Shown: positions 17,749 through 19,225, counted from the first letter of the stretch. The stretch: 22,265 nucleotides of DNA from Rikenella microfusus (GCA_020719385.1 DYQK01000047.1:1287-23551), one strand, 5' to 3'. Made by a program: numbers and translations. Notes: a model not told the origin generated them from the letters alone.

Positions 17749-17782
17749 AAAAATAAAATATTTCTGCAATTTTGCAAAAATT
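17749..17782. repeat. 34-bp direct repeat (left copy) flanking the MTase/ATPase cassette: aaaaataaaaTatttctgcaattttgcaaaaatT
   Basis: 33/34 identical to 20807-20840; abuts the stop codon of the last cassette gene; contains the near-palindrome tgcaattttgca. Confidence 0.6.
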
Positions 17783-18158
17783 AAAATTTTATCTCGTTGC
17801 CTTCTAACAAATCAATTTTATAATTATCCCAAAATTCCTTCTGTTTTTCTTGATTTGCCGTGCTGGCTGCGGGACAAACAGGAATATTTTGAAAACAAAT
17901 TAAGACTTTTACTGCGAATTGTTCGAAATCAATGCGTTTTTTAAACTCTTTGATTGTTGATTCTAATTGATTAATTGCGTTTTTTCGATGACTCGCCCGT
18001 TGTTTTAACTTTTTTACATTTTTAATTTCGACAAAATAAAATTTTTTTTCCTCGAATAAAGCACAATCGCAGCGTTTTTTGTCTTTAGAATCGAAAACGC
18101 ATTGGTCAATGGCTAAAAATATTATATTTTTTTTATAAGAATTAACAATTTTTAACAC
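17781..18158 (-). CDS. Small protein (125 aa from GTG) with a PD-(D/E)xK-like nuclease motif; probably the C-terminal part of a ~166-aa gene cut by an in-frame TGA
   Basis: IIFLAIDQCVFD...CDCALFEEKKFYFVEIK fits a D...E-x-K pattern. Upstream in the same frame are a TGA (18201-18203) and then MKTKIKNAFPNVSEKCFIVVSKKKFEV from an ATG at 18282-18284 that overlaps the ATPase stop as ATGA. Confidence 0.4.
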   Translation of the reverse strand: MLKIVNSYKKNIIFLAIDQCVFDSKDKKRCDCALFEEKKFYFVEIKNVKKLKQRASHRKNAINQLESTIKEFKKRIDFEQFAVKVLICFQNIPVCPAASTANQEKQKEFWDNYKIDLLEGNEIKF

Positions 18159-18280
18159 TCTATCATTGTCAACAACTTCGCATTTGCCGTTTTCTGTATC
18201 TCAAACTTCAAATTTTTTTTTCGAAACAACAATAAAGCATTTTTCAGAAACATTCGGAAACGCATTTTTTATTTTTGTCT

Positions 18281-19225
18281 TCATTTCGATTTTTTGTAAA
18301 TATTCATTAATTTCGAAAAATCGGCATTAATAATTTCTGACGCAATATCAAGTTCTGTTTCGCTAATTAATTTTGTTTTCGGATTAAAAACCTGTTTAAC
18401 TTTGCCCTTCGCAACGTGATACGCAATAAAATTTTCGGGAAGAATACGAAATTCTGAAGGAATAATTTGTGAAAGTTCATTTTCGAACTCTTTAGTTTCG
18501 ATTTGCCCCGCGAAAAGCAAATTATTTAACGAAGTTAAAACGTAAGGACTGTGCGTAGTTATAACCAAATGATTATTTTCATTCGCACATTTTGCCAAAA
18601 AACTTATTAATTCATATTGCATTTTGGGGTAAATATTCAATTCGGGCTCTTCGACAATGAAAGTTTTGCCCATATTTTGCTTCGAAAAATATTCTATCAC
18701 CAAAAATAACGGCACAACAGACTGAAAACCACTTGCCGACTCCGACAAACTTAACATTTTATTTTTATTTTTTATCAAATCTTGACCGTTGTTGTAAAAA
18801 TATTGAATATTTAAAAATTTTATTGATGTTTCATTAATTTCTTGACGTGCTTTTTGATAATATGTGCCAAATTGAGTTACCGATTTGGGCAAAGTTAAAC
18901 TATTATTCATAAATTCGATGGCTGCATTATTCAAAACCGAGACTAAAAAACGTTCCGCAGGAATATAAATCGAAGGAAACAAAGTTTTTTCACAATTTAG
19001 TTCTGTTTTTGGTTGCAGATAATTCTGAATATTATATTTTTTTAATGATTTTTCGAAATTTGTTTGATTCGAATTAATAAATTCCTCATCATTAAACATT
19101 GCAATAAGTTTTGCAATTGTACTTTTGCCAGCGGCTTGTTCACCAATTAAAATTGTAATTGGTTTAATTTCAATATTTGCCTCTTTGATGGGACCAAAAT
19201 TTTTTATTTGCAACGTTGTTAACAT
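18281..19225 (-). CDS. ABC-type (AAA_21/AAA_15-like, OLD/RecF-like) ATPase, 314 aa
   Basis: Walker A GEQAAGKST; signature-like LSLSESASGFQS; Walker B TFIVEEPELNIYP; H-loop HLVITTHSPYVL. Confidence 0.75.
   Translation of the reverse strand: MLTTLQIKNFGPIKEANIEIKPITILIGEQAAGKSTIAKLIAMFNDEEFINSNQTNFEKSLKKYNIQNYLQPKTELNCEKTLFPSIYIPAERFLVSVLNNAAIEFMNNSLTLPKSVTQFGTYYQKARQEINETSIKFLNIQYFYNNGQDLIKNKNKMLSLSESASGFQSVVPLFLVIEYFSKQNMGKTFIVEEPELNIYPKMQYELISFLAKCANENNHLVITTHSPYVLTSLNNLLFAGQIETKEFENELSQIIPSEFRILPENFIAYHVAKGKVKQVFNPKTKLISETELDIASEIINADFSKLMNIYKKSK

Follow-up and report, generated by a model that had tools for sequence, protein, structure and literature searches.

Our analysis of a 22,265-nucleotide (nt) stretch of DNA from Rikenella microfusus (GCA_020719385.1 DYQK01000047.1:1287-23551; "the window" always means this whole stretch) suggests that it carries a two-gene cassette of the PDC-M29 family, in which an ABC ATPase gene is coupled to a gene for a small PD-(D/E)xK protein. 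The cassette is the neighbour of a type II restriction-modification (R-M) system and is likely inactivated. We are fairly confident of this reading. As judged from its sequence, the pair adds a new, degraded member to a candidate family that is already catalogued. The R-M system and the ATPase-nuclease pair are neighbours, not one machine.

A conserved pair of an ABC ATPase and a predicted nuclease

The assignment to PDC-M29 comes from a PADLOC scan. For the ATPase, a protein of 314 amino acids (aa), PDC-M29A was the top match of 93 families (1.1e-43, 148 bits) and AriA the second (6e-29); its best relatives are the defence ATPases PDC-M29A, AriA, NsnB, PD-T4-4A, and PtuA. The small protein matches PDC-M29B at 3.7e-21 over profile positions 8-162 of 164 if its gene is read through an internal stop codon, and the residual open reading frame (ORF) of 125 aa does so at 1.8e-20 over positions 43-162 of 164.

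We followed the gene pair through 25 genome loci, mostly from Bacteroidota, with single Campylobacterota, Melioribacteraceae, and Treponema metagenome-assembled genomes (MAGs). Wherever sequence upstream of the small gene is available, the gene that immediately precedes it codes for an ATPase homologue, and the exceptions to this linkage are decayed or cut loci (e.g., L009). Of 24 loci, 22 have overlapping or directly adjoining ORFs, with an ATGA overlap in 11. The co-occurrence of this ATPase subfamily with a small nuclease partner, a point on which the original prediction hinged, is thus borne out. The ATPase gene and the small gene form a conserved autonomous two-gene cassette, which is patchily distributed, found in variable genomic contexts, and frequently pseudogenised. 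Five metagenome contigs are otherwise syntenic, but in one of them (L036) the stretch that follows the intact pair has been replaced (9723-17188) by a block with phage-like genes of nucleotide metabolism and replication, which encode a dUTPase, a thymidylate synthase, a family A DNA polymerase, a dCMP deaminase, and DUF3310.

Pfam recognises AAA_15 and AAA_21 in the ATPase and nothing else; no TOPRIM or other effector domain was found in this search, and the protein ends at residue 314. The ABC motif set is complete (Walker A, signature, Walker B/D-loop, and H-loop; Table 1). No substitution is seen among 119 homologues at G28, G33, K34, S35, E192, E193, P194, E195, or P227, and conservation is 90% or higher at S165, G166, Q168, T224, H225, and S226. 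The AlphaFold2 (AF2) model of the protein has a predicted local distance difference test score (pLDDT) of 92.1, and a Foldseek search of the model against the PDB returned PtuA (from Septu and from a retron), OLD, Rad50, and GajA at E-values of 3e-9 to 4e-7 and a probability of 1.00. By motifs and fold, the 314-aa protein is an ABC ATPase of the SMC/Rad50/OLD/PtuA clade. The original description of this protein as carrying the full ABC/OLD-type motifs and no effector domain stands unchanged.

The window ATPase is also the shortest among the 119 homologues (median about 400 aa); behind residue 78 it is missing an insert of about 90 aa. A close relative of 341 aa (P0016, 62% identity) is an orphan without a nuclease partner; it occurs in three JGI metagenomes (L030-L032), where an aspartyl-tRNA synthetase gene follows 57 nt downstream.

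For the small protein, 1.84 billion cluster representatives were searched with a profile, which gave 930 related representatives (445 at E <= 1e-10), nearly all of them 165-185 aa long. Conservation was counted in 143 diverse homologues. The catalytic residues are close to invariant: D60 is present in 143 of 143, D73 in 142, E86 in 136 (Asp in another seven), and K88 in 138. Q106 and N48 are each found in 140, and position 29 is always Asp or Glu. The D...ExK motif that had been noticed in the partner of the ATPase is therefore conserved across the homologues. Three cysteines, C16, C62, and C72, are conserved in 138-141 homologues (C16 in 141). C62 and C72 adjoin the catalytic D60 and D73. It is possible that the three cysteines form a structural metal site; a consistent fourth ligand is absent, as positions 35 and 74 are Cys in only about half of the members (C35 and C74) and show no co-variation.

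The AF2 model of the small protein (pLDDT 96.3) shows a restriction-endonuclease-like alpha-beta-beta-beta-alpha-beta fold with strands at residues 74-77 and 81-89, and the D...(D/E)xK residues are located on beta2 and beta3. The N-terminal 42 residues make up the first helix and a beta-hairpin and are conserved family-wide. The cleavage domains of FokI and N.BspD6I are the best structural match of this model. A Foldseek search gave no significant match; the top of its list consists of weak matches, almost all of them to PD-(D/E)xK enzymes. In Pfam no family passes the threshold (HSDR_N, NERD, PDDEXK_9, and SduA_C lie below it), and the profile of the family against PDB sequences returns only spurious sialyltransferase matches at an E-value of about 0.008. 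The small protein is also clearly distinct from the FokI and N.BspD6I domains: identity is only about 10%, it stands alone without a DNA-recognition domain, and it has the extra conserved N-terminal segment and the three near-invariant cysteines. Based on the conserved catalytic residues and the model, we consider it a PD-(D/E)xK nuclease-fold protein and a predicted nuclease. The original prediction had named three grounds for giving up the pairing, namely a small protein that is not a nuclease, D/E/K residues that are not conserved, and two genes that are never linked elsewhere. We looked for each of these in the sequences, the model, and the loci, and saw none of them.

A fixed premature stop in the small gene

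The small gene of the window is interrupted. Its ATG (18282-18284) overlaps the ATPase stop codon as ATGA (18281-18284), and from this ATG a single frame runs through one TGA (18201-18203, codon 28) into the 125-aa ORF. Read through the TGA, the gene yields a protein of 166 residues. That length had been reconstructed correctly before; what had gone unrecognised is that the break is an in-frame TGA and not a frameshift. The translational coupling that had been proposed holds for the full-length frame only, since the 125-aa ORF begins with a GTG 123 nt past the ATPase stop. The first 42 or so residues of homologues align with the segment upstream of the TGA, and at the position of codon 28 homologues have Tyr, Phe, Ile, or Leu.

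Four ways of explaining the stop away were considered and rejected. A frameshift at a run of nine A's (18213-18221) does not fit, as the N- and C-terminal parts share one frame with the single TGA between them. An alternative genetic code (TGA as Trp or Gly) is contradicted by 46 TGG codons and zero in-frame TGA in 16 window ORFs, which include full-length EF-Tu, ClpX, and S46 peptidase, and by two genes that have TGA as their terminal stop. The standard genetic code applies in the window. In a Logan protein (P0283) codon 28 appears as Trp, an artefact of a gene call with translation table 4; the DNA has TGA. Selenocysteine or a structured recoding signal finds no support: the RNA that follows the TGA shows no better folding than shuffled sequence (z -0.9), and selenocysteine is unlikely because the homologous residue is Tyr, Phe, Ile, or Leu, not Cys. 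Finally, an assembly error is contradicted by the identical TGA in six other assemblies (L026-L029, L043-L044; seven in total with the window). These six are one NCBI MAG, one JGI metagenome contig, and four Logan assemblies, and the TGA is unchanged in L026 and L027 despite 14-19 single-nucleotide differences from the window elsewhere.

In two of the Logan assemblies (L043 and L044, from SRR1560849 and SRR404094) the gene carries a second lesion in addition to the TGA. The terminal TAA has become TTA at the equivalent of 17781-17783, a stop-loss that lengthens the ORF by 22 codons. Taken together, the sharing of the TGA across assemblies and the stop-loss variant indicate that the stop is real and fixed in the population, and that the gene appears to drift. 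Truncated remnants of the small gene are also found in L009, L012, and L016.

Hence, the window cassette is most likely a recently inactivated remnant. The TGA removes the conserved N-terminal segment with C16 and D/E29, and the ATPase is without the insert of about 90 aa that members of the family typically have; the fixed TGA, the stop-loss variant, and the decay in relatives point to recent inactivation. The effector encoded by the small gene is probably dead in this organism.

One could also argue that the cassette still functions, either with low-level read-through of the UGA keeping a toxic effector scarce, or with the 125-aa GTG product as an active, N-terminally truncated effector. The ATPase ORF is intact with all its motifs, and the allele with the TGA is fixed across several samples. 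Leaving the TGA aside, A127V is the only change at a near-invariant residue of the small gene, which means that inactivation is recent or that the stop is partly bypassed. Yet read-through would have to occur without a recoding signal and, given the residues of homologues at codon 28, probably without selenocysteine. The truncated product would retain D60, D73, E86, K88, and Q106, but it would lack the 42 N-terminal residues that are conserved family-wide, including C16 and the acidic residue at position 29, and the GTG ORF has lost the translational coupling. Since a variant allele has acquired a second lesion and relatives show loss or decay of the partner, we think that continued function is unlikely and that recent inactivation describes the window cassette better.

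The neighbouring type II system and the island

On the minus strand the gene order is ClpX, DNA methyltransferase (MTase), a 252-aa restriction endonuclease (REase), the 314-aa ATPase, the small gene, and S46 peptidase (Table 1). The 252-aa protein had been taken for an unknown. It is a member of the R.HinP1I family that matches PF11463 end to end, and its gene directly follows that of the MTase. Going by these family matches, the two genes form a type II R-M system that is complete and of the conventional kind. The MTase is of the N4/N6 beta class, whereas M.HinP1I is a C5-MTase; we presume that the beta-class enzyme is the cognate of the endonuclease.

The four genes between ClpX and S46 peptidase are tightly packed: REase follows MTase without a gap (0 nt), 17 nt separate REase from the ATPase, and the ATPase and the small gene overlap. 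This block of about 3.06 kb has a GC content of 0.30 (single genes 0.29-0.33), compared with 0.37-0.38 in the flanking genes. It is flanked by direct repeats of about 45 nt, with one pair of 44 nt at 86% identity and another of 24 nt at 96%. The exact 21-mer TTTTTGCAAAATTGCAGAAAT occurs in the window only at the two repeat copies, and two matches were obtained in 0 of 100 shuffles. The common low GC content and the flanking repeats suggest that the four genes are probably one inserted island; possibly they are also one transcript. Each repeat copy closely precedes the start of a gene, the MTase gene in one case and the S46 peptidase gene in the other. Each also holds what looks like a putative Bacteroidetes-type TTTG...TAnnTTTG promoter. 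A scan for sigma-70 promoters and terminators gave matches no more frequent than in shuffled sequence. The arrangement suggests that the island arose by insertion with duplication of a promoter-bearing intergenic segment. When metagenome contigs were searched for the empty site with this 21-mer, only four contigs came up, all of them unrelated.

Table 1. Coordinates of the cassette, its neighbours, and functional residues in the window
Feature	Position	Strand	Remarks
ClpX	20863-22146	minus	upstream flank of four-gene island
Flanking direct repeat, upstream copy	20793-20839	minus	repeat families D3 and D7
N4/N6 (beta-class, TSPPY) DNA methyltransferase, 260 aa	20002-20784	minus	PF01555 6.8e-41; PADLOC MTase_II 2.5e-49, oMTase 4.6e-84
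Type II restriction endonuclease, R.HinP1I family, 252 aa	19243-20001	minus	PF11463 4.5e-75, positions 1-207/208; PADLOC REase_II 1.2e-93
ABC-type ATPase, PDC-M29A-like, 314 aa, short-insert variant	18281-19225	minus	Pfam AAA_15 1e-25, AAA_21 2e-15
ATPase Walker A GEQAAGKST, residues 28-36	19118-19144	minus	
ATPase ABC signature LSESASGFQ, residues 160-168	18722-18748	minus	
ATPase Walker B / D-loop TFIVEEPE, residues 188-195	18641-18664	minus	
ATPase H-loop TTHSP, residues 223-227	18545-18559	minus	
Small gene, full length, PDC-M29B-like PD-(D/E)xK protein	17781-18284	minus	166 sense codons and one internal TGA
Small-protein cysteines C16 / C62 / C72	18237-18239 / 18099-18101 / 18069-18071	minus	
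Premature stop, in-frame TGA, codon 28 of small gene	18201-18203	minus	
Residual 125-aa ORF from GTG (codon 43 of full small gene)	17781-18158	minus	without conserved C16 and D/E29
Small-protein D60	18105-18107	minus	
Small-protein catalytic core D73 (18066-18068)...E86-I-K88 (18021-18029)	18021-18068	minus	
Flanking direct repeat, downstream copy	17714-17781	minus	with 21-nt internal expansion
S46 peptidase	15545-17698	minus	downstream flank of four-gene island

Such an arrangement could be taken to mean that the ATPase and the small protein are accessories of the adjacent R-M system, either joining the MTase and the 252-aa protein in an ATP-dependent restriction complex or regulating them, and the original prediction considered both an unusual R-M architecture inside the MTase operon and an ATPase that regulates restriction. 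The four genes are indeed co-directional and tightly packed, they share the low GC content between the direct repeats, and in a sister subfamily the pair is embedded in type I R-M systems (4 of 19 loci, between hsdM-hsdS and hsdR). However, the 252-aa protein is a full-length, standard type II endonuclease of the R.HinP1I family, whose enzymes to our knowledge need no ATPase, and MTase and REase are complete without the pair. Homologues of the MTase or the REase were found beside the pair in none of the 25 genome loci and not in L030-L038; large ORFs near other loci that might have been type IIG R-M enzymes are IleRS, rhamnosidase, Pol I, peptidases, and NAD synthase. The window subfamily is found mostly among housekeeping genes, and in the window itself the small gene is broken and the R-M genes are intact. 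An accessory role is therefore largely refuted and in our opinion highly improbable. The association of the pair with a type II R-M system is specific to this genome, and we continue to treat the two as neighbours. For annotation this means that the cluster contains one ordinary type II R-M system and one degraded ABC-ATPase/PD-(D/E)xK candidate, and no new R-M architecture.

Relation to known systems and possible function

PDC-M29 corresponds to cassette CAS_00123 (FAM_00005>>FAM_02872), with 110 RefSeq instances, and is one of 145 candidates that were drawn from genes lying inside BREX, DISARM, or type I R-M systems (Payne et al., bioRxiv 10.1101/2024.01.29.577857). In our search of the literature the name "PDC-M29" was absent from main texts and occurred only in a supplementary-table listing, no annotation was found for FAM_02872, and no paper was found that joins AAA_15 and PDDEXK with a defence system. 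The window pair resembles this family in several ways. PDC-M29A and PDC-M29B are the top PADLOC matches of its two proteins, the genes are in the order A before B on the same strand and overlap, and protein B has a length of about 165 aa and the same D...ExK core. It differs in that the ATPase is without the insert of about 90 aa, in that gene B has a premature stop and so is not intact, and in that the cassette has a type II R-M system as its neighbour and is not embedded in type I, BREX, or DISARM.

Several observations speak against our interpretation, in addition to the well-preserved residues of the small gene. The B protein of the window scores 74 bits and the A protein 148 bits, whereas B proteins embedded in type I systems score 194-227 bits. 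Loci of the window subfamily are mostly solo pairs among housekeeping genes, outside defence islands, and searches of viral contigs and plasmids yielded no relatives of the small protein. The 145 PDCs are described by their source paper as untested (bioRxiv 10.1101/2024.01.29.577857). As for inactivation, a short ATPase relative of 331 aa (P0019) has an intact partner, which means that a short insert in the ATPase alone is no proof of decay.

Some of these observations would also be expected if the family had nothing to do with defence and were a housekeeping or mobile-element pair, a Rad50/SbcC-like ATPase with a small nuclease that serves repair, recombination, or cassette mobility. The solo pairs among housekeeping genes are consistent with such a role, the ATPase fold matches Rad50 too, and the defence role of PDC-M29 is that of a candidate only. 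Against a housekeeping role stand the patchy distribution, the variable contexts, and the frequent pseudogenisation. The pair is also without coiled-coil arms or an Mre11-type partner, and no transposase or integrase lies beside it in the loci inspected. The closest relatives of the ATPase are defence ATPases, and members of a sister subfamily lie inside type I R-M systems. This position associates the family with defence; PDC-M29 was itself defined by such embedding. We therefore regard a role outside of defence as very unlikely and a defence cassette of the PDC-M29 family as the better description.

Among validated systems, HEC-02 has a similar composition: it combines an ABC ATPase with a NERD PD-(D/E)xK nuclease, and both genes are required (bioRxiv 10.1101/2024.01.29.577857). 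The window pair likewise has an ABC ATPase and a separate nuclease of the PD-(D/E)xK superfamily, and its ATPase matches HEC-02A at 2e-11. However, the ATPase is much closer to PDC-M29A, and the partner is not a NERD protein (Pfam NERD 0.0069, below the cutoff) and has no PADLOC match to HEC-02B at E <= 10.

Septu shares the two-gene architecture of ATPase and nuclease, and PtuA from Septu and retron PtuAB is the closest solved structure to the window ATPase (Foldseek 3e-9 to 5e-8; profile 4e-8). Unlike the window partner, which is PD-(D/E)xK and has PDC-M29B as its only PADLOC match, PtuB is an HNH nuclease. PtuA is also longer (about 465-550 aa), and the PADLOC match of the window ATPase to PtuA reaches only 9e-13. 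In PARIS, the ABC ATPase AriA, second in the PADLOC scan, holds a separate nuclease. AriB is a TOPRIM/DUF4435 protein, whereas the window pair has no TOPRIM domain and no AriB match, and its small protein has a PD-(D/E)xK fold; the profile-to-PDB match between the window ATPase and AriA is weak (1e-5). The window ATPase differs from OLD and Gabija GajA in having no fused TOPRIM nuclease domain. The idea that the pair is built like Septu, PARIS, and Gabija-type systems, from an ATPase plus a nuclease, thus holds up, with a PD-(D/E)xK fold in the partner and linkage in essentially every locus.

By analogy with Septu, PARIS, and HEC-02, we infer an anti-phage role in which the ATPase would hold or gate the nuclease. 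Upon sensing infection, the ATPase might license the nuclease to cleave nucleic acid, and cleavage could then lead to abortive infection or to direct restriction.

A more specific idea is that PDC-M29 guards R-M systems. PrrC and PARIS sense phage anti-restriction proteins or the failure of R-M. In a similar way, the PDC-M29 ATPase might sense anti-restriction proteins or R-M failure and free a stand-alone FokI-like nuclease that a three-cysteine metal site stabilises. We offer this as a speculation that has only a small chance of being right. If it were true, it would explain both the recurrence of the family in type I R-M loci and its position here, directly behind a type II R-M system in the same repeat-bounded island. 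The TGA in the window could then be a tolerated attenuation of a toxic effector and not simple decay.

Our results add to what can be said about PDC-M29. The family has about 930 diverse representatives with near-universal translational coupling of the two genes, a conserved D/D/ExK/Q set with three cysteines, and a high-confidence FokI-like model of the predicted effector. A Bacteroidota subfamily lives outside defence islands. The effector gene has repeatedly been lost, as would be expected of a costly toxin. This makes PDC-M29 a well-defined target for experimental validation, for which the window copy would be a poor choice.

Other features of the window

Three further regions of the window deserve mention. 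Two large ORFs of 589 and 403 aa at 999-3979 (minus strand) are without a Pfam match and have a very low GC content of 0.25-0.26. At 4042-4383 (minus strand) there is an ORF of 113 aa that has only a weak, partial HATPase_c match and may be a fragment. An ORF of 822 aa at 7840-10308 (plus strand) contains MVP_shoulder (1.5e-27) and Vault_3 domains as well as a weak SPFH/Band 7 match; according to its domains, this predicted bacterial protein is homologous to the major vault protein of eukaryotes.

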